UHGV virus genome: UHGV-0111354
Origin: a virus
Length of the DNA: 47,240 bases
Strand: one strand, 5' to 3'
The position numbers and the translations under genes are program-made. Below are positions 1 through 40,141 of the stretch, piece after piece; positions within the stretch are counted from its first letter, which is position 1; each line of letters opens with the position of its first letter. Below the pieces are notes generated by a model. The model made no database searches and was not told the origin of the DNA. It was given only the letters and a program-made list of their open reading frames with translations.

Positions 1-88
1 ATGCAATTCTCATTTGATTATACCTCTCTGTTGTTGTTCCGATGAGTTAAAGATAGCCCACCTTGACGATGCCGTCAATACTAATTGC

Positions 89-116
89 AAAAAAAAAAGC
101 CCCGAAGGGCTTATTT
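89..116 (-). terminator. Rho-independent terminator after the primase-helicase gene: hairpin (G/C stem, CGAA loop) followed by T8 on the minus strand
   Basis: Seen in sequence. A8 run at 89-98, then GCCCCGAAGGGC at 99-110. Read on the minus strand this is stem-loop + TTTTTTTT directly after the stop at 111-113. Confidence 0.6.
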
Positions 117-2468
117 AGTTTCCGCAAAGGCAATAGCACTTGTATCACCCTGTGCCGCCGCGTAATGGCGCGCCACGTCTGCTGCATTTGTGAGGTTAGC
201 GTGAATGTGTCCAATCTTGATATAGAGCCGGGGTTTACCGCCATCAATCATTATCACATTGTTCACACGTCCGTCTTTAAGCGCAGGGTGCCAGTCGTAA
301 CCCAGTTGACGCATCATGTCACGGCGTTTACCTACCGGCACAGTGCGGTCGGCGCGCATCTGACGTAACAGGTTGTCCAGTGCCTTACTGCTCACCCAAC
401 CACCCGCAAAGCCCTGGCGACCCTCGTCAATCGCTTCCATAATTTCCTGCTCAACACTACCGAGTGATGCTGTCACAGCCTCGTGAGTGCTGCTGGTCTC
501 TGGTGCTCGCTGACAATGTGTCGCCGGGTTAAACTGTGCGGGAATGGCGTAGTTCTCCAGATAATGCGTCACGGCTGCAAATCCACCGCCACGTTTGAGC
601 CAGTCGTACAGGTTGGGGAAGTAGTCGCCGCCCATACCGTCACGCACGATATCGATATGCTCCTGCTGCGCAGTGTAGAAAATGGCGAACCGGCGGTCAT
701 TAGCGGTCTTGCGCACAGCGTTCTTGTGGTTACTGTTGAACATGAAGTTGGCACACAGGCGGTGCATTACCTGGTCCTGCTGCATCGCACGTTTAGCGAG
801 GTACTCACCGGTAATCATCGGTTTGAGTGTTTCAATCAGTTCGAGTTTCTGCTCCGGAACGTAAATATCCTCCACGCCGATGAATATTTTATCGAATAAC
901 CATGCGTTGAACTTCTCGCCAATTTCCTGCGCTGGCGGCATGTGACTGTAACGTGAACCGACCGCTTCCATTACGCACAGTGTGAACAGTGTTTTACCGT
1001 TACCTTCAACACCCTGCAGTAATGGCGCCCACTTGAACTTGGTCCCTTTGTACTGTACGCACGCCGCCATGTAGGACAGCAGGATGTCGCGGTCGCGCTC
1101 AACGGGTAACAGTTTGGCCAGATGAGTGAGGAAAGGTGTCACATCGCCCGGGACGCTCGCCACTGTCACCGGTACGTATGCGTTGACATGACGCAGACCG
1201 TCTTCTTCGATAATGGCACCCTGCGGCAGGTCCGGACGGAACGTTGAGCGGTCAACCTTCGGGAACATAATGCACTGGTTCTCGGTGAACGCTTCAAAAG
1301 CCTTTTTGGTGGTCTTCTCGTTACCGTCATCCAGCGCAAACACGTAGCCACCGTACATTGCATTAAACTGCTCGGACTTCAGCATCTGACCGTTTGGCGT
1401 GAGAATACGGTGACTGTCTGCCACATACACGCAGCCTTTGAAGTGGTCAACAAGTTGTGAGCCACCAATGAATTGATACCCACTGCGGATAACCGGTGCA
1501 CCCGTCTCAACAACCTGAGCAGGAGTCACCAGTTCAATCGGTGCGCCGACACTGTAGTAGGTTGTCTGACGTGCGCAAGCACCCAGAATGGTGCGTCGCA
1601 TGTACGACTTGTGACTGTCCCATTTAGGACGCGCCAGCGCAGACAGACGCATCAGGCGTTCGATACGTTCACAGTTACCACCGGTCCAGAACGATAAATG
1701 TTGGGCCAGTGCGGCATCGGCGCTCGACCCGTCATACTCGCGGTCCTCATCCGGATACGCATCACTCAGTACCTCGACGTTACGCGTCCACAGGTCTTTA
1801 AATGTTGCTTTACCACCGAAAACAGCCGCGACACCACCTTTACTCGAACAGGCTTTTTCGATGAGTTTCGCGTCGTCCTCAATCGGACACGAACCTTCGG
1901 CGTGAGTTGTTGACCACTCCACCGCTGCAACTTGCTCGGTCTGCGGGAAATACCGGGCAACCGTGGCGTTGAGCGGTGCGGATGCGTTAAACATCATGTC
2001 ACCCCGTGCACCACTTCCCAGACAGATGAAACGGTCGGACGTGTACAGTTCGATGTGCAGCGGAACATTTTTACAGCTATGCTCAGGGATGGACGGACTG
2101 TAACCGAAAATGTGCAAGCCTTTACCGCTGTTACTCACTTCCACGTAACAACCGGCAAAAGTGGTGCACAACTCCAGCGCGAGTGGTGACCAGGTATTAT
2201 CATCCTGTAGTGCGCCGTCGATATCCACGCAGAAACGTCCGTCACCAGTGAGAATGACTGCGGGACGATATGACTCGCCCAGTGCAGAAGCCGCTGCAAT
2301 CGCCTGAGCGTGAGTCATACGGTCCGCAACGTGCAGACTGACCACATCACCAGCAGCATTACATGGCATCTTCTCCGTGCGCCCGGGCTTCTTCTGTGAA
2401 GGTACTGTTTTGCAGACGATAAAGTGCAGAGAATCAGCCCTCTGCACAGGGGGATTCGTATGTGTCAT
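111..2468 (-). CDS. Bifunctional primase-helicase: PrimPol-like N-terminal domain + D5_N/primase-C + SF3 helicase (P4 alpha / poxvirus D5-like)
   Basis: 785-aa ORF. Walker A GVEGNGKT and Walker-B-like hydrophobic stretch ending in DE. N-terminal LTGDGRFCVDIDG primase-polymerase-like motif. RBS GGAGAG 7 nt upstream of the ATG at 2468. Confidence 0.7.
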   Translation of the reverse strand: MTHTNPPVQRADSLHFIVCKTVPSQKKPGRTEKMPCNAAGDVVSLHVADRMTHAQAIAAASALGESYRPAVILTGDGRFCVDIDGALQDDNTWSPLALELCTTFAGCYVEVSNSGKGLHIFGYSPSIPEHSCKNVPLHIELYTSDRFICLGSGARGDMMFNASAPLNATVARYFPQTEQVAAVEWSTTHAEGSCPIEDDAKLIEKACSSKGGVAAVFGGKATFKDLWTRNVEVLSDAYPDEDREYDGSSADAALAQHLSFWTGGNCERIERLMRLSALARPKWDSHKSYMRRTILGACARQTTYYSVGAPIELVTPAQVVETGAPVIRSGYQFIGGSQLVDHFKGCVYVADSHRILTPNGQMLKSEQFNAMYGGYVFALDDGNEKTTKKAFEAFTENQCIMFPKVDRSTFRPDLPQGAIIEEDGLRHVNAYVPVTVASVPGDVTPFLTHLAKLLPVERDRDILLSYMAACVQYKGTKFKWAPLLQGVEGNGKTLFTLCVMEAVGSRYSHMPPAQEIGEKFNAWLFDKIFIGVEDIYVPEQKLELIETLKPMITGEYLAKRAMQQDQVMHRLCANFMFNSNHKNAVRKTANDRRFAIFYTAQQEHIDIVRDGMGGDYFPNLYDWLKRGGGFAAVTHYLENYAIPAQFNPATHCQRAPETSSTHEAVTASLGSVEQEIMEAIDEGRQGFAGGWVSSKALDNLLRQMRADRTVPVGKRRDMMRQLGYDWHPALKDGRVNNVIMIDGGKPRLYIKIGHIHANLTNAADVARHYAAAQGDTSAIAFAETK

Positions 2469-2490
2469 CTCTGTCTCTCCGTTTTGGTTA

Positions 2491-2769
2491 TTAAAGCAAG
2501 GTGGTCAACGCGCGAGCACGTAGCTCCAGTGGTGCAGACTTAGCGATGTTGTCACCCAGTGCAATACCCTGTCCAATCAGTTCAAGGCTTTCTTCTTCCA
2601 CTGCTCGTTGCATCACTGCCTCACGAAGTGCGTCCATCCTGACCCAGTGATGGTTGATGGTGCCCATTGCCACACCAGCCTCGGCTGCCACACCATCGCG
2701 GGTAAGAGTACCAAAGCCGTCGCGCTGTGCCATCGTGTAAGCTACTTCCAGAATGTGTTCTTTGCTCAT
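2491..2769 (-). CDS. Mini TetR-family-like HTH protein (N-terminal TetR_N domain only); alternative start at 2808
   Basis: FGTLTRDGVAAEAGVAMGTINHHWVRMDAL matches the TetR_N helix-turn-helix signature (T.T..IA..AGVS.GT.YHHF..K..L). About 93 aa, with no ligand-binding domain. Minus-strand promoter-like TTGACC-17-CATACT upstream of the 2769 start. Confidence 0.45.
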   Translation of the reverse strand: MSKEHILEVAYTMAQRDGFGTLTRDGVAAEAGVAMGTINHHWVRMDALREAVMQRAVEEESLELIGQGIALGDNIAKSAPLELRARALTTLL

Positions 2770-2831
2770 AATTTCGGTTCCATTAGGTAATTTGTTGCAG
2801 TATGGCACAGGTTGACGGAGTGGTCAATGGG

Positions 2832-3293
2832 TCAGGCAAAGGAGATACCCACTTCACCTTTGTAATTTTTCGAAAGGTGCACCGCTCCTACAGGAAACCC
2901 AAACGGGAATCCAATTTTTCTTCCTGAGCCATAATAGCGGATGTGTTTTATACCTCCCCATTTATAAACTTCTTGTAGCTTCTTGTATGAACTTAAAAGT
3001 TTGTTAACGGGTATCAAGTAACAAACCTCATCGGCTAAAGAAAGACTATGGGTCAGCCATTCGTCAAAAATGCTATACGGAGGGTTACTGATAATCCATC
3101 TAACGGGCAACTCAAAATCGAAGAAATCAACTCCCTTTTCTATTTCACAAAAATATTTATTCCCTTCTAAATTATTAAAGAAAACTCCACCGCCCGAGCA
3201 AGGGTCGAGTATGATACCTTCGGGTTTAAAATGCTTTATCATGTCAAGAGCAATCCATTCAGGCGTGTAAACTACATCATTTGGGTTACTCAC
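2832..3293 (-). CDS. Small phage Dam-type DNA N6-adenine methyltransferase
   Basis: Motif I DPCSGGG (FxGxG-like AdoMet site) and motif IV NPPY. 153 aa, consistent with the small phage Dam family. Start overlaps the upstream gene stop (ATGA). Confidence 0.65.
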   Translation of the reverse strand: MSNPNDVVYTPEWIALDMIKHFKPEGIILDPCSGGGVFFNNLEGNKYFCEIEKGVDFFDFELPVRWIISNPPYSIFDEWLTHSLSLADEVCYLIPVNKLLSSYKKLQEVYKWGGIKHIRYYGSGRKIGFPFGFPVGAVHLSKNYKGEVGISFA

Positions 3294-3760
3294 AACTCCC
3301 CCTCACCATTCCAGAATTTAAAGTCCCCGCCCAGCCCAATGATAAGTGTCCCAAACGCAAGCTGTGCCTGTTCGTGTTCCGTACCTTTATACTTCCACCC
3401 GGCTTTTTTCACCTCGCGTGCCACAAACTGTCCAATGGTTAACCCTACCATATCAGGTGTGATAACCACGGGGCGGATACCGATGAGGTCGCTCGACTTG
3501 ATACGCTTGTTCATCGTTGAAGAGTCGTTGCACAGACCGTAACGTACAACTCGACCATTTTCATCTTTTAACGCACCGCAATTATTGCGAAAAAGTCGCC
3601 AGCCCATCTTACTTGCCAGCAGCCGCGCCTCATCCTGTACGCGCGCTTCGGGTGTATCTTTGGTTGAGCGTGGGGCATCCAATCCCACCATCGTCACAAG
3701 GTCAGCCAATGCCTCCCCTGTGATACTGTGTTTACGTTGCCATTCGAGAAGGTTGTTCAT
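3290..3760 (-). CDS. VRR-NUC domain nuclease (PD-(D/E)XK superfamily)
   Basis: 156 aa. GIRPVVITPDM ... GQFVAREVKKAGWKYKG resembles the VRR-NUC D...E.K catalytic core. Typical position next to a phage SF2 helicase. RBS taGGAGtg upstream. Confidence 0.5.
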   Translation of the reverse strand: MNNLLEWQRKHSITGEALADLVTMVGLDAPRSTKDTPEARVQDEARLLASKMGWRLFRNNCGALKDENGRVVRYGLCNDSSTMNKRIKSSDLIGIRPVVITPDMVGLTIGQFVAREVKKAGWKYKGTEHEQAQLAFGTLIIGLGGDFKFWNGEGEL

Positions 3761-3794
3761 GATACACTCCTAATTCATTCACATCGGGAACATG

Positions 3795-5465
3795 TTAGTG
3801 CGTTTTGACGAGTCCGTCAACGTCATTTTGTATTTTTTCCATAAGTGTTAGTGCATCATCTTTTTTCAGGCCTTGTGCACTTAACCAGTCGACGTGATAA
3901 GTCAGGAAAAATTTACGAAATATTTCTTTGTCGCTCATGCCGTCGTGTCGCCAGTAACCGGCAATAGTCGCCATCAGACCATCCAGTCGTCCCAGCACTT
4001 CCAGGCGCTCACTTTGACGCTTGACATTAGCCATCACTCCAGCGGGTGGTACATTCATCGCCGTCAGCCTGTTGCGCATTGCCTCGGGTGTCTCACGTGC
4101 TCCCACAACCTCATTGCGCATCTGTGCCAGTACATCCGGGTCAAGCTCGTACAGGTCACCGTCCACCTGCATCGGGCCGGAGCGGTCTGCCGGTTTAGGT
4201 ACAGGCTCGCCGCAGTCCGGACATGCGTCGAGGAACCGCTCATACACTGCCGCACAAGCTGTACACACGCGCACCGTCGATGGTTCACTTTTACCCGTGC
4301 GACGCTCCCGGCGGTCAAGACTCCACTCACGCGGTGCATCCGGTAAACCGTGGCGCATGACGTTCGATACAGCGTCAATAATGATAGCGTGTGATTTCCC
4401 CTCGAACGGACGCAGCGCACGACCGAACATTTGCGCATAAAGTGCATAACTCTGTGTCGGTCTGGCGAAAGACACCACTTCCACTGCGGGGATGTCCACT
4501 CCTTCCCCTATTAACGAATCATTAACAATTTGCAAAATCTTTCCGGACTTCAAATCGCGGATAGCCTGCACACGTTCTTCATCTGCATTACGTCCGGATA
4601 ACGCAATAGCCGGTACACCACGTTTGCGGTATTCCTCCGCTACTTCCTCAGCGGTATCCACACCAACGGTGAAAGTTATGCCACGCTTACCCGGGCAGAT
4701 TTTTAGATAGTGACTCACAATGTCACCAACGATATGCGACCGTCCAATTTCCGCTTTGAGTTCCTTCTCTTTATAATCCCCCGTGGTTTTACTGGTTTCC
4801 ACGTTATCCAGTCGCAGGTCAGTTGGTGGACAGTAAATTTTGTACTGACTGAGATATCCGTTATCGATAAGCCAGCGCATCGATGGTCCTTCGACAATCA
4901 CATCCGCATAACCGTCTGTCTCACGCGATAAACCCTGTCCATCTGCACGACAAGGTGTTGCAGTCGGTCCGAGTCCACGAGCACCAGCGTTGAGTAAGGG
5001 TGTCAGGACACCGCCCCAGGTCTTCGACTTCTTCGTAGCGTGGTGAAACTCATCCTGTACGACGGTCAGCTTATTACCCAGTTTTGCGAGGTCAGCAATT
5101 TTAGCCTCACGCATTGACTGTACAGACGCAACCATTACCCGTGCATTTGGGTCAACATAATTAACCCCGTGGTTTTCCATCGACTGCTTGGCTGCAAAGC
5201 GCACCACCTTATTAGCAGCAATAACCTGGTGGCGAATTTCCATGCGTCCCATCGTGTCGCTCAACTGTGTAATCAGCTCCTGACGATGTGCCAGCACCAG
5301 CACATACTGACCCCGGTCACGCTCTTTTGCGACAATCGCGGTTAGGGTCATTGACTTGCCACTGCCGGTGCTGGACACCATTGCTACAAACTGCTTACCG
5401 GCGTCCCATTGCTGGTACGTGTCTTTGACCAGTTTTTCCTGATAGGGTCGGAGTGTTGGTATCAT
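3795..5465 (-). CDS. SF2 DEAH-type DNA helicase with C-terminal zinc ribbon (ORF open to 5606; likely start at MIPTLRPYQ, 5465)
   Basis: Q-motif LRPYQ, Walker A SSTGSGKS, Walker B DEFHH, C-terminal helicase domain, then CTACAAVYERFLDACPDCG zinc ribbon. The start is ambiguous: ATGs at 5606, 5537 and 5465. Confidence 0.7.
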   Translation of the reverse strand: MIPTLRPYQEKLVKDTYQQWDAGKQFVAMVSSTGSGKSMTLTAIVAKERDRGQYVLVLAHRQELITQLSDTMGRMEIRHQVIAANKVVRFAAKQSMENHGVNYVDPNARVMVASVQSMREAKIADLAKLGNKLTVVQDEFHHATKKSKTWGGVLTPLLNAGARGLGPTATPCRADGQGLSRETDGYADVIVEGPSMRWLIDNGYLSQYKIYCPPTDLRLDNVETSKTTGDYKEKELKAEIGRSHIVGDIVSHYLKICPGKRGITFTVGVDTAEEVAEEYRKRGVPAIALSGRNADEERVQAIRDLKSGKILQIVNDSLIGEGVDIPAVEVVSFARPTQSYALYAQMFGRALRPFEGKSHAIIIDAVSNVMRHGLPDAPREWSLDRRERRTGKSEPSTVRVCTACAAVYERFLDACPDCGEPVPKPADRSGPMQVDGDLYELDPDVLAQMRNEVVGARETPEAMRNRLTAMNVPPAGVMANVKRQSERLEVLGRLDGLMATIAGYWRHDGMSDKEIFRKFFLTYHVDWLSAQGLKKDDALTLMEKIQNDVDGLVKTH

Positions 5466-6297: not shown

Positions 6298-6317
6298 CTC
6301 TCATTACCTCTCTGTTA

Positions 6318-6404
6318 TTGACGATAGCGTCATTATGTCGCACCACCCACCCCGTGTCAAATTTAAAATTAGTGTTGACGAGTGCGTCATGGTGGTATAG
6401 AGTT
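6318..6404. promoter_or_regulatory. Divergent early promoter hub. Minus-strand TTGACA-17-CATAAT. Plus-strand TTGACG-15-TATAGA. Two TTGACGnnnnCGTCAT palindromes (6318-6333, 6375-6390).
   Basis: Seen in sequence. The rc of 6339-6360 gives TTGACAcggggtgggtggtgcgaCATAAT. The plus strand gives TTGACGagtgcgtcatggtggTATAGAgt, upstream of the RBS GGAGGACAGAGAGAC-ATG at 6439. Confidence 0.6.
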
Positions 6405-6438
6405 CACCACATCGACAACAACGGAGGACAGAGAGACA

Positions 6439-7421
6439 TGAGTAATATCACATTAACCATCCCGAACGACGACCACATTGCGCTGCGTGCGTTCGGTAAA
6501 GCACTGGAAGAAATGGCACTGGCGCACGGTGCTGAGCCGATGGAAGAGACACTGGTGCGAGCGCGAGTCGGCGAAGAAGAAATTGAATATCTGACACGCG
6601 ATGCGGTTGCCGCTCGTCTACGTGTCGCCACAGAAGAACTACAACAAGCCGCACCGCGTATGATACAGGAGTTGCGTTTCGAAGGTGAGGAACTACACGG
6701 TAAACGCAAAGAGCCGGAAGTTGACAGCACCGCTCAACAGGTCGAGTCGCTGAGTAATAAGCGTGAGGAGTTTGAGCAAATTGTTGACGATGTGAAAGTT
6801 GCTGCATCCGAATTTCTCAACGTGCCTTCGCATGTTTTGACCGGGCAGGAAGCGCCACCCACCATCGACTCAACCGGTACACCGTGGGACGAGCGCATCC
6901 ACTCCGCCAGTAAGGCGCTCAATGCGGACGGCACGTGGCGTCTGCGTCGTAAGCCGAAGGATATGGATGAGGTGGAATGGTCCGACTACGTGAGCATGAT
7001 TAAAGCCGACCTACAATATCCGGTTGAATGCGGTGGAGAGGGGGAGGAAATTGGCGAACCGACACGGGAAGAAGTCGATGAACTCATCGAAGCCTCTAAC
7101 AAGATGTTGGAACCACCTGTAACACCGCCGGGCGATGACTTCCACACTGACGCAGGCGTGGTAACCGAGCAAACCGTTGTGGGTATTCCGCCAATCCCTG
7201 TACCGCCGCCGGTAGTTGTTGTACCACCTGTACCGGAAGTAGCTGAGTGGGACTTCCCGCGCCTAATGACCTTCCTGACCGAGCGTCACGGTAAGATTGA
7301 TGTGGCAACCGTGAACGCGCTGCTGGCGCAGGATGGCATGTCGTCGGTACAGGAACTGAACGTCCACTCGGATAAAATTGGTCCGTTCGTGACACGTGTT
7401 AAAGCGTATTTAGGGGAGTAA
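6439..7421 (+). CDS. Highly acidic early protein with Pro/Val-rich linker; contains the GTPWDERIH motif shared with the DNA polymerase
   Basis: 327 aa from the ATG at 6439 with a strong RBS. Very D/E-rich. PVPPPVVVVPPVPEV segment. No recognisable enzymatic motifs. Confidence 0.5.
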
Positions 7422-7426
7422 TCACA

Positions 7427-8551
7427 ATGAGTAACTTACCCAAAGTATCTGACGCCGGACAATGGATGGTCTGTAACGGGTCATTCCGAGCACAACAGGC
7501 TCACCCGCCGCTGAATGTCGAACCGTCGCAGTCACGTCTCGAGGGACGTGCCGCACACGAAGTGGCTCAGAAGTTATTCAAAAATGAGCCATTCAGTGGC
7601 CTGGTGGGTAGTTTGTCAAAGGATGGAATTATCATCACAGACGAACTGTTTGATGCTGCTCGTGAGTATTTTAACGAGGTGTGGGGTTATTGTAACACTC
7701 ACGGGCGAGTGCACGACCTTCACGTTGAAGAAGTGTGTCCTGTTCCGGGTTACGGTGACTGGTACTGTATCCCCGATGCATGGGTGTACGTACCGGAAGT
7801 GAAGGTGTTACGTGTCTGGGACGCGAAATTCGGTCACCGTATTGTTGACCCGTTTGAAAACTGGCAGTTGTTGATTGAAGCGTTCAGTATTTGCGAACAA
7901 TTCCAGTCGCCACCGGGCATTATTGAACTGGTCATCGTACAGCCACGCGGATTCACCGGTGAGGGTACGGTGCGTAAATGGGCGCTCACATACGATGAAC
8001 TGTGCGCATACCGGCAGCAGGTGAACGAGACGATACTCCGCGTGCTGGATGCCACGCCGATGTGCACGTCCGGACCACACTGTCTCGACTGTAGCGCACG
8101 TGCACACTGTGACACGCTGAAGCAACAGAGTTATGCGGGTGTGGACTACGTACAGTCGTTGCAGACGCATAATTTGTCCGGTCATGCACTGGGCGTTGAG
8201 TTGCGACTCCTGCAGCGTGCGCAGGAGATGATTAAAATGCGTCTCAGTGGTCTGGAGGAACAGGCACTGCACGAGATTAAGCAGGGACAACACGTGACAT
8301 TCTACAGCGCTAAAACCACATACGGTCGTAAGCGCTGGAAGAAAGATGTACCGGTGGACCAGGTGATTATGATGGGGGATTTACTCGGTCAAAATCTTCG
8401 TAAGCCACAGGAACTGGACACACCCGCACAGTGTGTGAAAAAAGGTATCGACCCGTCCGTTATTGAGCAGTACGCCGAAACACCTGTCACGGGTGTCAAG
8501 CTGGAACAGGTTGATGAGCGCAGTATCCGTAGCGTATTTGAGAGGAAGTGA
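7427..8551 (+). CDS. Cas4/RecB-like PD-(D/E)XK exonuclease with Cys cluster (DUF2800-like phage exonuclease)
   Basis: YCIPDAWVYVPE...LRVWDAKFG gives D...D/E-x-K motifs II/III. Cys at CPVPGYGDWYC and CTSGPHCLDCSARAHC fit a Cas4-type Fe-S arrangement. Sits next to a DUF2815-like SSB, as in known phage replication modules. Confidence 0.6.
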   Translation: MSNLPKVSDAGQWMVCNGSFRAQQAHPPLNVEPSQSRLEGRAAHEVAQKLFKNEPFSGLVGSLSKDGIIITDELFDAAREYFNEVWGYCNTHGRVHDLHVEEVCPVPGYGDWYCIPDAWVYVPEVKVLRVWDAKFGHRIVDPFENWQLLIEAFSICEQFQSPPGIIELVIVQPRGFTGEGTVRKWALTYDELCAYRQQVNETILRVLDATPMCTSGPHCLDCSARAHCDTLKQQSYAGVDYVQSLQTHNLSGHALGVELRLLQRAQEMIKMRLSGLEEQALHEIKQGQHVTFYSAKTTYGRKRWKKDVPVDQVIMMGDLLGQNLRKPQELDTPAQCVKKGIDPSVIEQYAETPVTGVKLEQVDERSIRSVFERK

Positions 8552-8553
8552 TT

Positions 8554-8679
8554 ATGAAAATCAGCAAGAAAGAAGCAGAAGTTATTTTGGGTTTGATTAA
8601 GCAAGCGTTTCTCGATGGGTTTGATGATGCTGAACTCGTGGAACTTTTTGAGCGTTTGATGAATTTTATCAAAGATTAG
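8554..8679 (+). CDS. Small hypothetical protein (41 aa)
   Basis: ATG 3 nt after the upstream stop. Below the ORF-track cutoff. Confidence 0.3.
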   Translation: MKISKKEAEVILGLIKQAFLDGFDDAELVELFERLMNFIKD

Positions 8680-8681
8680 TA

Positions 8682-8739
8682 TTGACGCACCCGTCAAACT
8701 AACGTAGTATTCAAATCACCGGGAGACAGAAGGTCTCCC
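8682..8739 (+). promoter_or_regulatory. Sigma70-type promoter TTGACG-17-TAGTAT with palindromic -35 (TTGACGcaccCGTCAA) and leader hairpin GGGAGACagaagGTCTCCC
   Basis: Seen in sequence. Near-consensus -35, good -10 with 17-nt spacer. A 7-bp perfect-stem hairpin sits at about +5..+23 of the predicted transcript. Confidence 0.6.
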
Positions 8740-8763
8740 ACATTTAACAGAGAGGAAATAACC

Positions 8764-9039
8764 ATGTTTGGATTTGGAAAGAAAGAAGAAACAGTGAGTC
8801 TGTCTGCACCCGTACCGGATGGAACTAAAAGCCTCGATCAAATTATAGAAAGTCTTTCAGATGATGGACAACACTTTCTTATCCCATCGAGTGACGACAT
8901 TCAATCTCTACTGGTGCAACTCGGTTCAGATTTTAAAATCACGAATCGGAATCCAGCAACAGACACGTCGGGCACAAATATTGACCGGTCTATTCTTTTG
9001 TGTGCTGCGTTATTACTGAAAAGATTAAATAACGCTTGA
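8764..9039 (+). CDS. Hypothetical acidic protein
   Basis: 91-aa ORF with RBS GAGAGGAAATAACC-ATG downstream of the promoter above. Confidence 0.45.
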   Translation: MFGFGKKEETVSLSAPVPDGTKSLDQIIESLSDDGQHFLIPSSDDIQSLLVQLGSDFKITNRNPATDTSGTNIDRSILLCAALLLKRLNNA

Positions 9040-9095
9040 CGCACCCGTCAAACTAACGTAGTATTCAAATCATCGGGAGACAGAGGGTCTCCCAC
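9036..9095 (+). promoter_or_regulatory. Second copy of the TTGACGcaccCGTCAA-17-TAGTAT promoter plus GGGAGAC..GTCTCCC leader hairpin
   Basis: About 75 bp near-identical to 8682-8757. Lies upstream of the SSB-like gene. Confidence 0.6.
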
Positions 9096-9118
9096 ACTTA
9101 GCAGAGAGGATTTATAAG

Positions 9119-9931
9119 ATGGCTCAATTTACTTTCGTTACCCCTGTTGCTCGCCTGATTCACGGTCACCCGCTGAAACAGAATGTGCGCACTGATGGAG
9201 TTACAAAACAACCGGTTCTTGGTAAAGATGGTCAGCCCGTTAAAGAGATTTACATCGGTATTGCAATTCCTAAAACCGGTGAAGCGGACTGGAAAGATAC
9301 CGAATGGGGTAAACAAATCGCAATGGCGGCGCTGGACGCTGAAAACGGTTACGATGCCGCCACCACTCGCCGCCCGGATTTTTCCTGGAAAGTAATCGAT
9401 GGCGATAGCGACATCCCGAACAAAGCTGGTCACGCACCGAATGAGGACGAATATAAACGCGGTCACTGGGTCTTGCACCTGAACACCCGCATTCCGTACA
9501 ACTGTTATCATGTTGGTAAATATAATCCGCTCGATGCGATTCAGGACGTAAACGCTATTAAACTCGGCGATTACGTTCGTGTGAATATCGTGGCGAAAGG
9601 TAATAAGCCGTCCAAAACTCCGGGCGTGTATTTGAACCCGAATCTGCTCGAGCTGTCACGTGTGGGCGAAGCGATCATTCGTGAAGGCAGCGGTCCGGAC
9701 GCAGCAAGCGTATTCGGCGGTAGTGCACCTGCTCAGGTAGCACCGACCCCAGCCCCAGCTGCTCCCGCACCTGCAACACCGCCGCCAGCAACTGACTTAC
9801 TGGTGACACCGCCGCCGGTTGTTGAAGAGAAGTACAGTTACAACGGCGCGGTGTATACCAAAGCACAACTGCTCGGTATGCCCGGCTGGAGCGAAGAGTT
9901 AATCGCACAACACTGTCAGAAAGTAGCGTAA
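9119..9931 (+). CDS. Phage ssDNA-binding protein, DUF2815-like, with Pro/Ala-rich C-terminal linker
   Basis: The N-terminal FVTPVARLIHGHP... pattern resembles DUF2815 phage SSBs. PTPAPAAPAPATPPPA linker then a short conserved tail. Adjacent to a DUF2800-like nuclease. The family call rests on memory of the profile. Confidence 0.45.
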   Translation: MAQFTFVTPVARLIHGHPLKQNVRTDGVTKQPVLGKDGQPVKEIYIGIAIPKTGEADWKDTEWGKQIAMAALDAENGYDAATTRRPDFSWKVIDGDSDIPNKAGHAPNEDEYKRGHWVLHLNTRIPYNCYHVGKYNPLDAIQDVNAIKLGDYVRVNIVAKGNKPSKTPGVYLNPNLLELSRVGEAIIREGSGPDAASVFGGSAPAQVAPTPAPAAPAPATPPPATDLLVTPPPVVEEKYSYNGAVYTKAQLLGMPGWSEELIAQHCQKVA

Positions 9932-9938
9932 CCACAAC

Positions 9939-9966
9939 GCCCCGGTGCGAGCCGGGGTAATTTAAC
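9939..9966 (+). terminator. Weak intrinsic terminator/attenuator hairpin (CCCCGG tgcgag CCGGGG) + TAATTTA
   Basis: Seen in sequence immediately after the SSB-like stop. Confidence 0.35.
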
Positions 9967-9981
9967 TGGAGAGGGTGTATC

Positions 9982-10101
9982 ATGACCGACCAACGACTGA
10001 AACAGTTTGATGAAAAGTTAGCTGAACTGGAAAAGGCTATTAAACAGGTGCAGGAGCAACGCCGGGAATATATTAACCAGAATGGGTTAAATAAATCGTA
10101 A
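9982..10101 (+). CDS. Small coiled-coil protein (39 aa)
   Basis: ATG with RBS GGAGAGGG. Bracketed by two terminator-like hairpins. Confidence 0.3.
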   Translation: MTDQRLKQFDEKLAELEKAIKQVQEQRREYINQNGLNKS

Positions 10102-10108
10102 TAGCTTT

Positions 10109-10133
10109 AGCCCCTTAACTGGGGCTTTTCTTA
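10109..10133 (+). terminator. Intrinsic terminator hairpin AGCCCC ttaact GGGGCT + TTTTCTT
   Basis: Seen in sequence, 16 nt upstream of the polymerase RBS. Confidence 0.45.
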
Positions 10134-10148
10134 CAGAGAGGAACAGAG

Positions 10149-20805: not shown

Positions 20806-21067
20806 GTCGCCCTCCTGTGAAAATAATGTCAAGTATACTATTGACACTCACGTCAAACAATGTAATTATTTATTCGCAGGCATATAGCACATGTGTCTTT
20901 AGCGGTCCGGGGTGTTCCTTTCCTTGCATCAGCGGGTAGCCGGAATGTGTAGCCAAGTGTACACTGAGCGGTTGGTCACCGCGGCGGTTCGACCAATATA
21001 ACGGTTTAGAGTTTAGATGACGTTTAACCTGTAAACCGTGCTCTCTCTGTTGTGCTCCTGCATGTTT

Positions 21068-21093
21068 GCCCCGTACTCCGGGGCTTTTTTTTT
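21068..21093 (+). terminator. Strong plus-strand intrinsic terminator GCCCCG tactc CGGGGC + T9, in a region where all annotated genes are on the minus strand
   Basis: Seen in sequence. The minus-strand reading has an A-run before the hairpin, so it is not a minus terminator. Confidence 0.55.
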
Positions 21094-25474: not shown

Positions 25475-25534
25475 TGTTATTTCTCCGGTTGTTAGTCGTT
25501 ACAGTGTACACTTGACGAAATCATCAATCAATTG

Positions 25535-25565
25535 TTGACGGCTCCGTCAGTATGGTATAGAGTGT
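25535..25565 (+). promoter_or_regulatory. Moron promoter TTGACGgctcCGTCAG-...-TATAGA with about 70-bp conserved leader (copy A)
   Basis: Seen in sequence. Near-identical to 40076-40141. Confidence 0.55.
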
Positions 25566-25600
25566 ACGTGTTGGTTAAACATTATCACAGGGGATGAGAG

Positions 25601-26067: not shown

Positions 26068-26183
26068 CTAAGGGGTCAATTGTGATCAATCACATCGTTA
26101 ATCGTGACCATGAATAAATCGATTTGAACGGGTCGTGATTTTTATCGAAACTACACTCACACGAACAAGAGGGGAGAACAGAG

Positions 26184-30015: not shown

Positions 30016-30313
30016 CCACATACCCCGTTAAAACTCGTTCGGGGTACTTCAACGGGGTATCAAAAACTCTTTAACTTTCAGTACTATACTACTTATTACC
30101 CTTATACCCTTATAAAATAGTAATTAGTAGTAATAGAAAGTATATAATATATAATATAAATGTAGTATAATACATAATGTATACTTTATAGGGTTTATAA
30201 GAAGGAAGAAGGGAAGAATGTACGGGGTTTTCGGTTATGCTCGTAAGCTGCTGATTGTGAAAGTAAATTCGCCACCCCTATGCCTCGTGTATTTCGGGGT
30301 AAAATGAGGTATT
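30016..30313. repeat. 298-bp direct repeat, copy 1 (identical to 44110-44407): 10-bp inverted repeat ATACCCCGTT/AACGGGGTAT, CGGGGTA iterons, about 150-bp AT-rich core
   Basis: Seen in sequence. Base-by-base comparison of the two copies shows identity over 298 bp. Boundaries come from the flanking mismatches. Confidence 0.9.
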
Positions 30314-30345
30314 GACGAATCCGTCAATCACTGATACACTCATTC
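30312..30345 (+). promoter_or_regulatory. Promoter TTGACGaatcCGTCAA-17-TACACT upstream of the GTG-start gene at 30372
   Basis: Seen in sequence. The palindrome overlaps the -35. RBS GAGGGG. Confidence 0.45.
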
Positions 30346-30371: not shown

Positions 30372-31010
30372 GTGACTAGTGACCTGATTCTATTATTTCT
30401 GTCAGTAAATCCTGACTCCACTTTTAATGAGATGACAAAGTGCATGAGTATCAACGTGGGGTCAGCTTACTCAACGGTTAGTAATCTTAAAAAGTATGGC
30501 AATATCGTATCGACGTCTGAGAGGCCACGGCGGTACAGTATCACGAAAGAATTTACCGCAAAAAGTGAAGTATACGATGAGTACGTTCACCGGGTTATTG
30601 CGGCGGGTGCCAGCACTGTGGAAAGTGTTGTCAAAGTTAGCGGACTGTCATCTTACAGGGTTGCATTGTCCATCAGAAGACTGAAGAATTTGAACAAAAT
30701 ATCAACGATTACCGGTATGGGAATCACGTTGAATGAATTACCTGTTGACTTAAAACTAAAACCCTGGACAACAAAAGAAATGCAAACGCTGGAAGATTTA
30801 GCGGGGAGGGTACCAATCTCTGAGATTTGTGAGACATTGGGCAGAACACGAAACAGTATTCAGATGAAGTGTCATTTGCTTGGGTTGTCACTGGTAACGC
30901 ATACGTGCAGGAAAGGACACCGCATGGTCGAACGGAAAACTGGAAAATGGGTTTGCAATGAATGTCACTCCCAGGCGGAAAGATTGAGACGTGTGGTCAA
31001 TAAAGCATAA
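30372..31010 (+). CDS. Putative DNA-binding regulator (winged-helix-like N-terminus + C-terminal C4 zinc ribbon)
   Basis: 212 aa, GTG start. C-terminal CRKGHRMVERKTGKWVCNECH. Divergent from the neck operon. Confidence 0.35.
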   Translation: MTSDLILLFLSVNPDSTFNEMTKCMSINVGSAYSTVSNLKKYGNIVSTSERPRRYSITKEFTAKSEVYDEYVHRVIAAGASTVESVVKVSGLSSYRVALSIRRLKNLNKISTITGMGITLNELPVDLKLKPWTTKEMQTLEDLAGRVPISEICETLGRTRNSIQMKCHLLGLSLVTHTCRKGHRMVERKTGKWVCNECHSQAERLRRVVNKA

Positions 31011-31245
31011 GTCCGGAACCACCCTGTTCGTGACCACAAGTCGCATTACAGCGGTGAATCGTAGAGAAATGGGGTGGAGAGTCACCAGTATGCTAACAAA
31101 ACACTATCGTAGATTCTTCATTATCAGAGGTATCGTGGTTGAGGATGAAGGTTATTTATGTGCTGACAAGGTCATCATGAAGTATTACGGTCGTCACTAC
31201 GCCGGGAGGATTGGTGAATAAAGCCCCGTGAGGGGCTCATATTAA

Positions 31246-33731: not shown

Positions 33732-35129
33732 TCATTTTACCCACAACAGCTTGTCCTGTCCAGAATCGTAGATACGCGAGACACCTTCTGATTCGTACCA
33801 TTGCGTCTGCGTCATTCCATCCGGTGCACGGTTCCACTTCTCACGCGATTCGGTTGTGCAACCATTTACAATCCTGAACCCCACTGTCGTGGTTGAAAGT
33901 GTGAAACCAGCATTAATATAACTGGAACCGCTGAACAAATCCCTGTCAACGTATGAATAGGCGCGGTTAATGTTGTTAACCGTGGTAGCATGTTTCCACA
34001 GGCGGGACAGTCCACCCGGAACATTACACGCGGTTGCATATCGTACCAGTTCCCACTCATTCTTTTTCTGCCAGTTTGTCAGACTGATTACGGCGACTAA
34101 GGTATCATCGTGTTGCAGACCATAATGCGCGGTCGCACCCCGGAAACCCTGTACGTGGTGTTTCTCCATGAACGCCTTCGCTTCAGACGTCGAAACTTCC
34201 ACAATGTTACATTTTCGGGCAAACACTTTGTCGGATGTCACGCCGAGTGCGTTGCGAATGATATTTTCCACCTGTTCGCGGCGCTCATTCCAGACATCCT
34301 CGCGAATGCTTATCAGACGGTATCCTGCTGCTTCCACGCGATGACGCTTGGTAATGTGATACCTCTTATCCTTCGTGCGCTCATCGTGCCAGTACAGACC
34401 GTTAAATTCGATTGCCAGATTGTGTGACGGCACTACAACATCAAGTTCCAGCGGTCCAATGATTGTACGGTCGGATTGTACCGCATCGGGACAAATGGAA
34501 CGGACGAAGTTGAAGACTTCTGTTTCGGCTTTTGATACTCCCGAGTTGGAGCACTTAGGACAACCTGACCCCTGCCTCACGTGAACATCCGCCAGTTGTT
34601 CGAAAACTCCGTGTACCGGGCAACGTATGGAGACTGTCTGGTCAATCCTCAAATAATTCGTATCTGTGTAGTCATATTTGTCTCCGTGTTTGACTCTTGC
34701 CTTTTTTACCCATTCATCTTTTGACATTTTGCCGCCGCGATTACAGGCGGGACAGCCCGATCCGCGTAGATGTATTTTTATACTCTGATTGAACTCCCCG
34801 TGATCGGGACAGATTGCTGTCAGTGACTTTGAGTTTACGCCCGCGATGCGGTACTGATATCTGCCGGAGTGTATTATCATCGCTTTCCGTATTACTTCAT
34901 CGATTGGGGTACTACGCTTGGAAGCAGAGCGCTTGTCTCCACACTTGGGACACCCGATTCCAGCGAGATGACTGTATGCTTTCTGCTGGAATACCCCGTG
35001 CTCGGGACAGATTATCGACACCGTATCATGCACTTTACCGAAGAAAACGTGGGAATAATCATACTTACCTCCGTGTTTCTGAGACGCCCTCTGTTTGAAA
35101 ATATCAACCGTTACTCTGACTCGTTTCAC
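33732..35129 (-). CDS. Homing-endonuclease-like protein: three zinc-ribbon repeats + Vsr/DUF559-like PD-(D/E)XK endonuclease domain + C-terminal domain of unknown function
   Basis: Repeats CPEHGVFQQKAYSHLAGIGCPKCG, CPDHGEFNQSIKIHLRGSGCPAC, CPVHGVFEQLADVHVRQGSGCPKC. GPLELDVVVPSHNLAIEFNGLYWH is Vsr/DUF559-like. Inserted just after the capsid-gene terminator. Confidence 0.55.
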   Translation of the reverse strand: MKRVRVTVDIFKQRASQKHGGKYDYSHVFFGKVHDTVSIICPEHGVFQQKAYSHLAGIGCPKCGDKRSASKRSTPIDEVIRKAMIIHSGRYQYRIAGVNSKSLTAICPDHGEFNQSIKIHLRGSGCPACNRGGKMSKDEWVKKARVKHGDKYDYTDTNYLRIDQTVSIRCPVHGVFEQLADVHVRQGSGCPKCSNSGVSKAETEVFNFVRSICPDAVQSDRTIIGPLELDVVVPSHNLAIEFNGLYWHDERTKDKRYHITKRHRVEAAGYRLISIREDVWNERREQVENIIRNALGVTSDKVFARKCNIVEVSTSEAKAFMEKHHVQGFRGATAHYGLQHDDTLVAVISLTNWQKKNEWELVRYATACNVPGGLSRLWKHATTVNNINRAYSYVDRDLFSGSSYINAGFTLSTTTVGFRIVNGCTTESREKWNRAPDGMTQTQWYESEGVSRIYDSGQDKLLWVK

Positions 35130-35197
35130 TGTGCGACCCTCTTTTTGTGTTTGTACCGATACTACATGTTTTATATTCCGGCGTCAACGCAAAAGAA

Positions 35198-35217
35198 AAG
35201 CCCTCCGAAGAGGGCTT
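35198..35217 (-). terminator. Intrinsic terminator after the major capsid gene: AAGCCCTC cgaa GAGGGCTT + TTTCTTTTG on the minus strand
   Basis: Seen in sequence, 20 nt downstream of the capsid stop. Confidence 0.65.
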
Positions 35218-36776: not shown

Positions 36777-37919
36777 TTATTTAAGTTTACCAGTCTGACG
36801 CAGCAGTGCTTCTTGTGCGCGGGACAGTACAGGTTTTGCGTCGGCTACCGGCTGTTTGATGTCTTTAGCGGCATCTTTAGCCAGTTGCTCAAGCTGTGAG
36901 TCTACCACAGGTTTCACCGGTTCTTCTACAGCCATGTCGAAAGCGGCTTCAACATAGGCGGTAGATTTTTCAGCCCAGTCAACAGACGGACGTTTAACAG
37001 CGAGAGCGGCACGTTTGATTGCAACCGGGTCCATGCTGTCACAGGTGAATTCATCGCCAGCAACTTTACGCGCTGAGGTGGTAACACGTGCAATTGCTTC
37101 CACGCGTGCTTTCAGGGCTTCGTCGCTGCATTTGGTGGTCAGGTCAGCAACCTGTTCCAGTGCTGCGTCGAGTTGGGCCTGTACGGTTTCTTTGGCGGCT
37201 TCGGCGTCACTGACACGCTGTTCCAAGCGTTTGAACGCGTCTACCACCGCAGCATCCGCCACATCAACTTTTAGCCCGGTGTCAGTGGTGATTTGATACA
37301 TGGGTTTTTTCTCCATATTATCGAAGATACGCGCCATTGCACCCGCACGAGCACGGTCAACAATTGCAACGTGGTTAATTTTAATCTGAGTCTGTCGGAA
37401 TTCGTATGGTTCACCTTCCGGCGTTGTCCCTGGTGTACAATCATACACCGCCGTGTAACCCGCTGACAACTCACACTTGCCGGTTTCGACAGCCTTAATC
37501 GCGTCTTTATCCTTAATAACCATATCCACAATGACAAAATCGCCGTCCTGGCGACCAACACTCGTTACAACACCAACGGAAGTGTTACGGTACGTGGAAG
37601 CATTGACGAGTGTGGGGGGATGGTTATTCGTGACATCTGCGCCGAGATAGCTCTGAAGTGATTCATCGTTAAACACTTCTTCGGCGGGACGGTATACACG
37701 GATAATGTCGTTCGGTGCGCGGTCTTTCAGTCCCAGTTCCGAAGCGAGATATTCCTGAATACCAGTACGAGCGGCTTTACCCGGCACACGCAGGAATCCC
37801 TCATCCGTGTAAACACGTTGGGAATTCAGTGCGAAACTTTTACGGTCATTGTGTGTTACGGTGATTTGCATGTTGACGAGTCCGTCAGAGTATGCCATAG
37901 TGATAATCGTTAAACACAT
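36777..37919 (-). CDS. Prohead protease fused to Ala-rich coiled-coil scaffold domain
   Basis: The N-terminal half is globular. The C-terminal half AEAAKETVQAQLDAALEQVADLTTK... is a scaffold-like coiled coil. Position between MuF-like and capsid genes. Start ambiguous (37919/37898/37871). Confidence 0.45.
   Translation of the reverse strand: MCLTIITMAYSDGLVNMQITVTHNDRKSFALNSQRVYTDEGFLRVPGKAARTGIQEYLASELGLKDRAPNDIIRVYRPAEEVFNDESLQSYLGADVTNNHPPTLVNASTYRNTSVGVVTSVGRQDGDFVIVDMVIKDKDAIKAVETGKCELSAGYTAVYDCTPGTTPEGEPYEFRQTQIKINHVAIVDRARAGAMARIFDNMEKKPMYQITTDTGLKVDVADAAVVDAFKRLEQRVSDAEAAKETVQAQLDAALEQVADLTTKCSDEALKARVEAIARVTTSARKVAGDEFTCDSMDPVAIKRAALAVKRPSVDWAEKSTAYVEAAFDMAVEEPVKPVVDSQLEQLAKDAAKDIKQPVADAKPVLSRAQEALLRQTGKLK
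37873..37910 (+). promoter_or_regulatory. Moron promoter TTGACGagtcCGTCAG-17-CATAGT
   Basis: Seen in sequence, upstream of the plus-strand gene at 37948. Confidence 0.45.
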
Positions 37920-38877: not shown

Positions 38878-38910
38878 TGTCGGCGTTGTGATTTGGGTCG
38901 TATATTTAAG

Positions 38911-38940
38911 TTGACGAGTTCGTCAGGGATGACGTATACT
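38911..38940 (+). promoter_or_regulatory. Promoter TTGACGagttCGTCAG-18-TATACT
   Basis: Seen in sequence. Palindromic -35 element. Confidence 0.5.
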
Positions 38941-38978
38941 CAGTTCATCAACAACAACAGAGAGGGTTTGAGAGACAA

Positions 38979-39128
38979 ATGAACACATTACTTCCCGGCT
39001 ACAACCGTCCCGCCCCACAAGCGCGGGTCATTGATAAAGAATTGTTAAAGACCGCACAACAGCTTGCGCGCAAGCATGAAGGTTGGACGCTCGCTAACGC
39101 TGTGTTGCGTGAGGCGTATGGAAAATGA
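38979..39128 (+). CDS. Small hypothetical protein (49 aa)
   Basis: ORF with RBS AGAGGG downstream of the promoter above. Confidence 0.3.
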   Translation: MNTLLPGYNRPAPQARVIDKELLKTAQQLARKHEGWTLANAVLREAYGK

Positions 39129-39322
39129 ACTATAAACCTGTCAAGGCGGTAATGCTCCGCAACAATGACCGGATTATCGATGTGGACGGTGTTATCACCG
39201 TAACGAACTTTAAAATGAACTTCCGTGAAGATATCGTGACATTTACCGCGACCAAAGAAGACGGTTCAGCATCTGAGCGCTGGATAGCGATGGACCGACT
39301 TGTCAATAAGGTTACTTCTTAG
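39125..39322 (+). CDS. Small hypothetical protein
   Basis: 65-aa ORF, ATGA-coupled. Confidence 0.35.
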   Translation: MNYKPVKAVMLRNNDRIIDVDGVITVTNFKMNFREDIVTFTATKEDGSASERWIAMDRLVNKVTS

Positions 39323-40073
39323 CCTTATACCGCTCCACTGCTGCCGATGTTACCGGCCTACTGACGCATCGGCAGTTTATTGCTTGACCTGGAAATGTCG
39401 GCATACCATCGACAACCGGCAAATCATCCCAGCGGAACACACCTTCACCGAATCCCACATCACGTTTAGCAACTTCAACGTGGCTGTGACGCACCCGCTC
39501 ATCCTGTGACGTTACCCATCTGAAATACTCAATACCACTGTTCGTCTGACGGATACGGTTCATATCACCCTGTATTTTACTCGTCTGATCGCGTGCAATT
39601 AATTTAGCACGACGCTCCGTGACACCAAATTGTTTAACGAGTGCTTCCTCGATGTAACTGGGGCGCATACCGTTACGCATATTGGTCATGACAATGTTCT
39701 GCACCTGCTCCAGATACTGAGCCGGAATTGACTGAATGAGTTTGGCATTCTGATACGATGCCGCGCTGAGATATTCCTGCAGCTGTGTATCGCCGCCGTA
39801 CAGATTGATAGCGAATGAGCGGGCGTTATCCTTTGCCGCAGTCTGTACAAACTGTGACGCGATAGTCTCAGCCTGACGACGAGCAAACGCGCCAAGCCAC
39901 CGTGTGAGCAACTGGTTAATCGCCGAGGTAATAGTGTCACTCCAGCCGTCAGCGGTGTACTCCGGCGCAAGCTGTTTCACCAGTGGTACAATGTTGGTGT
40001 CCACATCCTCATGAACAAGCCGTGCAACCTGTTTCAGCTGACGATAATAATTTAGTTCTGTTTGTCGTGACAT
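39312..40073 (-). CDS. Head morphogenesis protein, Mu F-like / SPP1 gp7 family (minor capsid protein)
   Basis: C-terminal HSHVEVAKRDVGFGEG...PGQAINCRCVS matches the Phage_Mu_F conserved C-terminal block. Confidence 0.65.
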   Translation of the reverse strand: MSRQTELNYYRQLKQVARLVHEDVDTNIVPLVKQLAPEYTADGWSDTITSAINQLLTRWLGAFARRQAETIASQFVQTAAKDNARSFAINLYGGDTQLQEYLSAASYQNAKLIQSIPAQYLEQVQNIVMTNMRNGMRPSYIEEALVKQFGVTERRAKLIARDQTSKIQGDMNRIRQTNSGIEYFRWVTSQDERVRHSHVEVAKRDVGFGEGVFRWDDLPVVDGMPTFPGQAINCRCVSRPVTSAAVERYKAKK

Positions 40074-40075
40074 GC

Positions 40076-40141
40076 TTGACGGCCTCGTCAGTATGGTGTA
40101 GAGTGTACGTGTTAGTTAAATATTATCACAGGAGAAGAGAG
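40076..40141 (+). promoter_or_regulatory. Promoter TTGACGgcctCGTCAG-...-TGTAGA with about 70-bp conserved leader (copy B of the 25535 cassette)
   Basis: Seen in sequence. Near-identical to 25531-25600. Confidence 0.55.

Follow-up and report, generated by a model that had tools for sequence, protein, structure and literature searches.

What function is served by the 16-bp palindromes scattered through the intergenic DNA of virus genome UHGV-0111354 is the question raised by this stretch (the window, meaning the whole 47,240 bp that was analysed). A first-pass annotation made from the letters alone had noted that at least 13 intergenic sites carry the palindrome TTGACG-N4-CGTCA(A/G/T), usually with its left half doubling as a -35 hexamer, and had proposed a phage-specific regulon, read by a dimeric helix-turn-helix protein, for coordinated shutoff or activation of transcription by host RNA polymerase. 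From the analysis of the window and its relatives, the sites are most likely host sigma70-type promoters with a built-in repressor operator, their promoter activity being predicted from sequence. It is further proposed, with a probability of roughly 60%, that these promoter-embedded operators are bound by an autoregulated, ligand-less "mini-TetR" protein encoded at 2491-2769 on the minus strand, which would repress early and accessory promoters; we infer all three of its parts, namely mini-TetR as the binder, dimeric binding, and repression.

Spanning one complete and circularly permuted genome, the window comes from a Klebsiella myovirus (genus Jedunavirus); over the first 25 kb compared, its identity is 99.8% with RCIP0063 and 99.2% with HHU1. 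A small early gene located by mapping of HHU1 proteins (47038-47240 plus 1-13) crosses the window ends, and the window thus represents the whole genome, opened inside a gene. Replication genes form two divergent early operons that leave a 140-bp control region (6298-6437), the minus strand carries the structural genes, and these are interrupted by short plus-strand blocks of accessory genes. About 9% of the genome is non-coding, and Rfam and tRNA scans of the whole window gave no matches.

Within this genome the exact 16-mer TTGACG-N4-CGTCAA (TTGACGNNNNCGTCAA) occurs five times (63, 3805, 8682, 9036 and 30312) where shuffled sequences lead one to expect 0.01, and with one mismatch or fewer there are 14 sites against 0.19 expected, a number reached by none of 100 shuffles; the enrichment over shuffled sequence is thereby established. 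The shorter core TGACG-N4-CGTCA is exact at 11 sites and is found with at most one mismatch at 16 (2.3 expected), including an extra imperfect copy at 44093-44106 upstream of terS. Recounting in the window confirmed all 13 coordinates given earlier and added one imperfect site, 25512-25527 (TTGACGAAATCATCAA). The copies are dispersed, with 14-15 sites over 47 kb, and 12 of the 14 lie entirely within non-coding DNA, the others being site 9036, which overlaps a gene end by 4 nt, and site 3805, inside the last codons of the helicase gene. When all intergenic TTGACG hexamers on both strands are considered, 14 of 19 have CGTCA exactly 10 nt downstream. The suggestion that every plus-strand gene block in the structural region is preceded by a site did not hold, as the lysis genes at 13571 and the genes at 31991 and 44461 lack one.

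Oriented to the downstream gene, 12 sites read TTGACG-N4-CGTCA(A/G/T)-N7-TAnnnT, with some -10 hexamers being CAnnnT. At these 12 the left arm is the -35 (TTGACG, TTGACA or TTGACC), the right arm CGTCA takes up spacer positions 11-15, and the spacer is 17 bp at 11 sites and 18 bp at one, a tighter arrangement than the 15-18 nt first described. An independent consensus scan recovered the same 12 promoters with the same spacers. Most early and accessory genes of the phage would be transcribed from palindrome-bearing promoters of this kind. Totals from generic promoter scans were no higher than chance (28 vs 22.7, 28 vs 26.0, and 17 vs 12.5), so that the palindrome-bearing subset alone is informative. 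Centres of the half-sites in TGACG-N4-CGTCA are about one helical turn apart, and in the standard register the dyad covers the -35 and spacer (-34 to -21, or -35 to -20 for the 16-mer), a position that would exclude polymerase. Some of the initial reading of these promoters needs revision. Site 3805 does serve minus-strand genes as described, but so do 63 and 2812, which had been assigned to the plus strand; site 6318 is not a -35 and instead covers the -10/start region of a separate leftward promoter; and the idea that one palindrome could serve genes on both strands fails for want of a usable -10 on the opposite side, which scores 2-7 against 8-11 on the gene side. Intergenic promoter candidates without a dyad also occur, at 16356 (minus), at 35187 (minus) before a homing-endonuclease-like gene, and at 44406 (plus). 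The depositors of phage KpV52 had annotated several of these sites, by prediction, as 29-bp "promoter" features, and the mini-TetR gene as a TetR-family regulator.

Whether the right half-site is anything more than a chance neighbour of a -35 box was evaluated by picking promoters only as TTGACR-N17-[TC]AnnnT in six genomes, which yielded 57 unique promoters. Spacer positions 11-15 (CGTCA) held 0.74-1.10 bits of information, and all other spacer positions 0.03-0.33 bits. Conservation of the right half-site thus clearly exceeds its surroundings, and because it appears without any selection for that arm, the right arm is under selection of its own. At orthologous sites in Jedunavirus genomes both arms are kept while the N4, the N7 and even the -10 vary. 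The same architecture extends well beyond the genus: at one mismatch or fewer, Pantoea phage AAM22 has 13 sites (0.1 expected), Vibrio phage CP-T1 has nine (0.13 expected) and Edwardsiella phage PEi21 has seven (0.2 expected), and the metagenomic contigs L012 and L013 carry eight and six sites. Proteins shared between the window and AAM22, CP-T1, PEi21 and the other motif-bearing phages are about 30-60% identical. Acinetobacter phage Scuro (L007), which has in common with the window the replication module only, possesses no TGACG-type sites; six of its promoters read TTGACA-N4-TGTCA(A/T) in the same register, and the Scuro-like metagenomic contig L017 has the same TGACA-N4-TGTCA variant. On sequence comparison this is a compensatory change, with both arms altered together. 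In Vibrio phage 142E35-1, with a related replication module and no mini-TetR, there was no enrichment, the one match being inside a gene.

Co-occurrence identified the mini-TetR as the candidate binder. In a presence/absence table of all window proteins, it is found in all four other motif-bearing phages and not in 142E35-1, and no other protein with a recognisable transcription-factor domain shows that distribution. In each of the complete genomes examined, its gene lies directly behind a dyad promoter, which has the variant form TTGACC-N4-CGTCAA in Jedunavirus and AAM22. When IMG/VR was scanned by the 29-nt promoter-plus-operator pattern alone, at least 120 fragments with a mean length of 9.4 kb were obtained, and 27 of the 120 among the matches listed hold a mini-TetR open reading frame (profile E<1e-5). 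As the fragments represent about one-fifth of a genome of about 45 kb, 27 of 120 roughly fits one copy in nearly every genome, with the caveats that sites cluster near the gene and that some single-site fragments are possibly chance matches. A dyad promoter is located within about 80 nt of the mini-TetR start in 22 of 26 distinct IMG/VR upstream regions. A rule that the autoregulatory site is always imperfect was considered and dropped: it is true of Jedunavirus, AAM22, CP-T1, PEi21 and L012/L013, but five of the 26 IMG/VR regions have the perfect 16-mer. The two regulators initially put forward fared differently. The mini-TetR was favoured by its co-occurrence with the motif and by its upstream site, whereas the protein at 30372-31010, described as a helix-turn-helix/zinc-ribbon protein, was rejected as the binder, having no homologue in CP-T1, AAM22, Scuro or PEi21; it has a weak TrmB-like Pfam match of 24.5 bits, under the cut-off.

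The 92-residue mini-TetR matches Pfam TetR_N with 32.3 bits (cut-off 24) over 47 of 47 profile positions, and its 47 sequence matches in the PDB are all TetR-family N-domains. Single-sequence structure prediction was poor (predicted local distance difference test, pLDDT, of 67) and an alignment-based AF2 monomer model was used instead (pLDDT 97.9); it has seven short helices, with only short ones after helix 4. Foldseek matches to the model were TetR-family chains only, all about twice as long, and the C-terminal ligand-binding and dimerisation domain (classical helices 4-9/10, in proteins of about 180-220 residues) is absent. The mini-TetR is a TetR_N-only offshoot and not a classical TetR regulator. 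An exhaustive profile-free search gave 1,289 cluster representatives at E<=0.001, of which 152 were at E<=1e-10. Of the 150 best, almost all are either single proteins of about 90-118 residues or tandems of 162-175 residues in which the query matches twice; the few others are fragments or longer proteins reaching 216 residues. The protein belongs to a distinct mini family and is not a truncated gene. Among collected phages it occurs in Jedunaviruses and in phages of Pantoea, Acinetobacter, Vibrio, Edwardsiella, Alteromonas, Pseudoalteromonas and Shewanella. Scuro (21424-21924) and L017 (10001-10501) each encode a tandem mini-TetR of 166 residues with two helix-turn-helix segments, and such tandem forms may be single-chain pseudo-dimers.

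The gene and the sites of the window are as follows.

2491..2769, minus strand: mini-TetR gene, 92 residues, TetR_N helix-turn-helix plus about 40 further residues
63..78, minus strand: predicted promoter/operator TTGACGgcatCGTCAA (read on the minus strand), -10 TATCTT at 50-55
2812..2827, minus strand: predicted variant promoter/operator TTGACCactcCGTCAA, -10 CATACT at 2799-2804, directly upstream of the mini-TetR gene
3805..3820, minus strand: predicted promoter/operator TTGACGgactCGTCAA, -10 TAACAT at 3792-3797, in the helicase 3' end, serving genes from 3760 down to 2832
6318..6333, minus strand: putative operator only, ATGACGctatCGTCAA (on the minus strand), over the -10/start of the leftward early promoter
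6375..6390, plus strand: predicted promoter/operator TTGACGagtgCGTCAT, -10 TAGAGT at 6398-6403
8682..8697, plus strand: predicted promoter/operator TTGACGcaccCGTCAA, -10 TAGTAT at 8705-8710
9036..9051, plus strand: predicted promoter/operator, -10 at 9059-9064, preceding the single-stranded DNA-binding protein gene
20841..20856, plus strand: predicted promoter/operator TTGACActcaCGTCAA, -10 AATTAT at 20864-20869, pointing against late baseplate genes
25512..25527, minus strand: imperfect palindrome TTGATGatttCGTCAA (on the minus strand), role uncertain
25535..25550, plus strand: predicted promoter/operator TTGACGgctcCGTCAG, -10 TAGAGT at 25558-25563
30312..30327, plus strand: predicted promoter/operator TTGACGaatcCGTCAA, -10 TACACT at 30335-30340, for 30372-31221
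37873..37888, plus strand: predicted promoter/operator TTGACGagtcCGTCAG, -10 CATAGT at 37896-37901, for an accessory block up to 38865
38911..38926, plus strand: predicted promoter/operator TTGACGagttCGTCAG, -10 TATACT at 38935-38940, 18-bp spacer
40076..40091, plus strand: predicted promoter/operator TTGACGgcctCGTCAG, -10 TAGAGT at 40099-40104, paralogue of the 25535 cassette
44093..44106, minus strand: imperfect core palindrome TGACGgtacAGTCA (on the minus strand), in the spacer of a terS promoter candidate

Site 2812 is presumed to be the autoregulatory site of the mini-TetR, and its TTGACC variant is also present in KpV52, VLCpiM12a, RCIP0081, AAM22 and IMG/VR contigs. In the central control region, 6375 is the predicted rightward early promoter for 6438-12661 (exonuclease, single-stranded DNA-binding protein and DNA polymerase). 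The leftward early promoter, TTGACA (6360-6355)-17-CATAAT (6337-6332), is the best consensus match of the genome (11/12), and it is here that 6318 keeps the palindrome without being a -35, which indicates that the dyad can exist apart from a -35 role; the same arrangement is seen in VLCpiM12a, RCIP0081, L012 and L013. Elsewhere, site 63-78 comes after the primase terminator (97-112) and would drive an operon that begins at base 13 and, across the window end, runs from 47240 down to 45248, 25535 would drive the accessory block 25601-26900, which includes a Rha/antirepressor-like protein, and 40076 would drive 40454-40762 (HNH-like). The uncertain site 25512, conserved in KpV52 and VLCpiM12a, overlaps a weak leftward promoter candidate (TTGATT 25526-25531, TACACT 25503-25508) before the tail gene at 25474. 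The terS promoter candidate reads GTGGCA-18-TAAAAT with an extended -10; the 44093 dyad in its spacer is conserved in all four Jedunavirus genomes checked and absent in AAM22, CP-T1 and PEi21, and is a possible weak operator on a late promoter.

Two pairs of cassettes are near-identical including their leaders, 8682-8763 with 9036-9118 and 25535-25600 with 40076-40140, which suggests that promoter-plus-leader modules were duplicated or exchanged as units. The leaders of 8682 and 9036 contain the hairpin GGGAGACAGA(A/G)GGTCTCCC.

Taken together, these observations suggest a simple scheme for the preferred reading. The dyad would be bound by two helix-turn-helix domains of the 92-residue mini-TetR, whose early synthesis would come from the leftward early operon and from the promoter at 2812, which carries an operator itself. 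Increasing amounts of the protein would then occupy the -35 and spacer at roughly a dozen promoters in competition with RNA polymerase, and at the leftward early promoter mini-TetR on 6318 would cover the -10 and start site. Targets turned down would include replication genes, the accessory blocks that run against late operons, one non-coding RNA, and the mini-TetR gene itself. Since there is no ligand domain, its role would be that of a timer driven by concentration, or of a negative-feedback governor, and not that of a sensor. Repression is favoured because the dyad occupies repressor positions and the near-consensus promoters would need no activator. Of the regulon first proposed, the promoter/operator core is upheld by the right-arm conservation and by its persistence across genera, and the activation half is unlikely, since the sites cover the -35 or -10. 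Two DNA-binding domains per site would be in keeping with the tandem forms (162-175 residues) common in the family, and the target of RutR, a TetR-family dimer, is a 16-bp dyad, TTGACCAnnTGGTCAA, whose outer arms are the same (PMC2475637).

Several observations weigh against the mini-TetR as the binder. The domain through which classical TetR proteins dimerise is missing, so that dimerisation of the mini-TetR is an assumption. The recognition helix differs by clade (INHHW, VSFAF, VSYYY) as the operator stays nearly constant, and a helix that does not co-vary with its operator makes the protein fit less neatly. The negative control is a single motif-less relative, 142E35-1. Distant mini-TetR homologues also occur without the TGACG palindrome: in Alteromonas phage R9Y3 no dyad was found in 13 kb, and Pseudoalteromonas phage PY6 (L011), with a mini-TetR 30% identical to that of the window, has a different 18-bp dyad, GTAGCGC-N4-GCGCTAC, in the spacer/-10 of three early promoters (7108, 8015 and 12383). 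There the promoters read TTGACA-cc-dyad and the last dyad bases, TAC, begin the -10 TACACT; the PY6 dyad and its mini-TetR may be a diverged repressor/operator pair. Finally, host RutR-like proteins could recognise 10 of the 14 consensus positions.

Some of these points would be expected if the operator were real and its binder were another phage protein, such as a small conserved early protein, or the mini-TetR together with a partner. The varying recognition helix and the palindrome-free genomes of PY6 and R9Y3 fit such a binder, as does the conservation of the proteins at 3290-3760 and 6438-7421 in all motif-bearing phages. It is nevertheless unlikely, as these two proteins are present in motif-less 142E35-1 as well and have no Pfam DNA-binding domain, and among recognisable transcription factors the mini-TetR alone has the right distribution, with its gene tightly linked to a site in most upstream regions (22/26). 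The resemblance to RutR brings in a host factor in place of a phage protein: the palindrome could be the site of a RutR-like TetR-family protein, or of a CRP/FNR-type dimer, that the phage exploits. The RutR consensus has the same length and agrees with the phage motif at 10 of 14 consensus positions, and natural RutR sites themselves match at 10-11 of 14 (PMC2475637). Against this, the motif tracks the phage lineage across Klebsiella, Vibrio and Edwardsiella hosts, both arms change in the Acinetobacter phages alongside a diverged phage TetR, and a Vibrio phage that shares the replication module but has no mini-TetR is without the motif, all of which makes a host factor quite unlikely. A special kinship between mini-TetR and RutR was also considered and rejected; RutR is not among the 47 PDB sequence matches, and the likeness is in operator geometry alone.

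Two further readings dispense with a bound regulator altogether. The sites might be ordinary sigma70 promoters whose right arm is common by descent from one cassette and has no function, and the duplicates 8682 with 9036 and 25535 with 40076, which extend into the leaders, show that such copying occurs. Descent alone is very unlikely to account for the arms, though, because the N4, N7 and -10 have diverged freely as CGTCA was kept, orthologous sites likewise keep their arms, and these persist between phages whose proteins are 30-50% identical; moreover 6318 retains the dyad in the absence of a -35 role, Scuro alters both arms, and likely foreign promoters such as 35187, before the homing-endonuclease-like gene, are without it. 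Alternatively the symmetry itself could matter, through a DNA or RNA hairpin or through back-to-back -35 elements firing both ways. The dyad can fold into a 6-bp stem with a 4-nt loop, and a terminator scan returned three sites as weak stem-loops, but the element precedes the start of the transcript that it controls and hence is not in that RNA, the sequence is conserved beyond pairing, many sites break the outer pair (CGTCAG, CGTCAT) or have G/T combinations (CP-T1, PEi21), and the opposite side has no -10, as its low scores indicate. A role for structure or symmetry is accordingly judged highly improbable.

A stronger form of the proposed repression can also be envisaged, in which mini-TetR and its operators would be a genome-wide switch that silences essentially all early transcription by the host polymerase and, beyond trimming early expression in lytic growth, allows these "dwarf" myoviruses to persist in a repressed carrier or plasmid-like state. 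The CP-T1 record gives its source as an "induced lysogen", with no integrase annotated; annotations of HHU1, KpV52 and VLCpiM12a contain no integrase or partition genes, no search aimed at them having been made. Such a switch appears rather unlikely. If it did operate, the mini-TetR family, single and tandem forms alike, would be a previously unrecognised class of phage repressors that are minimal, sense no ligand and come with a portable operator embedded in promoters. Since the phages concerned include many that infect Klebsiella pneumoniae, silencing would bear on treating them as strictly lytic.

Downstream of the 20841 promoter (20841-20869), in a gap between minus-strand baseplate genes, is a candidate RNA of about 215 nt (20876-21095, plus strand) with a strong terminator at 21068-21093, no credible open reading frame, and a fold z-score of -2.1. 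Because of the terminator and the lack of an open reading frame downstream, the promoter probably drives a non-coding RNA. Jedunaviruses conserve its 5' domain and a 3' motif on either side of a variable middle (130-300 nt), and about 70 nt of the 5' domain recur, at 78-81% identity, in intergenic regions of three unrelated Uetakevirus podophages; in BUCT711, one of the three, the variable middle contains a tRNA-Arg(UCU). RNAalifold on a seven-sequence alignment gave four helices and six pairs with compensatory changes, and a search of Rfam with the candidate RNA matched no family.

Upstream of terS (44093-44200 and 44170-44290), TACCCCG/CGGGGTA repeats and an AT-rich stretch made up of tatac/ataat repeats lie beside the imperfect core dyad; possible roles are those of an origin, a packaging site or a late control region. 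A 45-bp flank (attcgccacccctatgcctcgtgtatttcggggtaaaatgaggta) is duplicated at 30267-30311 and 44361-44405; the first copy precedes the dyad promoter at 30312, and the second is followed at 44406 by a dyad-less TTTACC-18-TATAGT for gene 44461. Between the capsid and head-tail genes, the homing-endonuclease-like gene (33732-35129, minus strand), 75% identical to its HHU1 counterpart, has a strong promoter of its own, TTGACG-17-TAGTAT (35159-35187), with no dyad and with a terminator upstream (35198-35217). This gene looks like an inserted mobile unit outside the regulon.

Neither the palindrome nor a mini-TetR regulon was described in the literature consulted on the motif, Jedunavirus promoters, the CP-T1/phiPLPE group, AAM22, KpV52/JD001, and phage TetR operators. 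Comeau et al. 2012 (PMC3391216) reported tetR-like genes in phiPLPE, CP-T1 and 138, and did not discuss promoters or palindromes. The large family of TetR-like proteins of about 100 residues with a compact operator fused to a consensus -35 is undescribed, and would provide an example of a TetR DNA-binding domain that acts without the usual ligand and dimerisation domain. The proposed regulation is a testable model for how early expression is timed or limited in phages without their own RNA polymerase, and the TTGACGagtcCGTCAA-type operator with its protein is a possible very small repressor/promoter part for synthetic biology.

Among known systems, TetR-tetO and the RutR box share with the mini-TetR the TetR_N helix-turn-helix, and the RutR box further resembles the phage dyad in its 14-16 bp, its half-sites about one turn apart, and its outer arms TTGAC...GTCAA (PMC2475637). 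TetR-family pairs in general are also alike in having an operator that overlaps promoter elements and a site for the regulator's own gene. They differ in the regulator, a protein of about 200 residues with a ligand and dimerisation domain, whereas the mini-TetR of 92 residues is without both and would have no inducer. Lambda Cro and CI act at six operators at two loci, OR and OL. Cro is similar as a very small, early helix-turn-helix protein that lowers early transcription through dyad operators of graded affinity over divergent early promoters, but its fold is unrelated, and the phage described here has about 14 sites genome-wide, mostly fused to the -35 in one fixed register, and no evident lysogeny module. 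The P1 C1 operators, the L5 gp71 stoperators and the conserved inverted repeats of phiC31 are sites of temperate phages that maintain lysogeny. Each is comparable in having one phage repressor and many scattered cognate sites, several of them over promoters, by which many transcription units are controlled together; the repressors are larger and unrelated to TetR, the P1 and L5 sites are asymmetric, unlike the present dyad, and L5 stoperators act within transcribed regions. The T4 MotA box is likewise a conserved element specific to the phage, located in or close to the -35 region throughout one class of promoters used by the host polymerase. It replaces the -35, however, has no dyad, and is the site of an activator that needs AsiA, whereas the promoters described here have a near-consensus -35 and an element positioned for repression.

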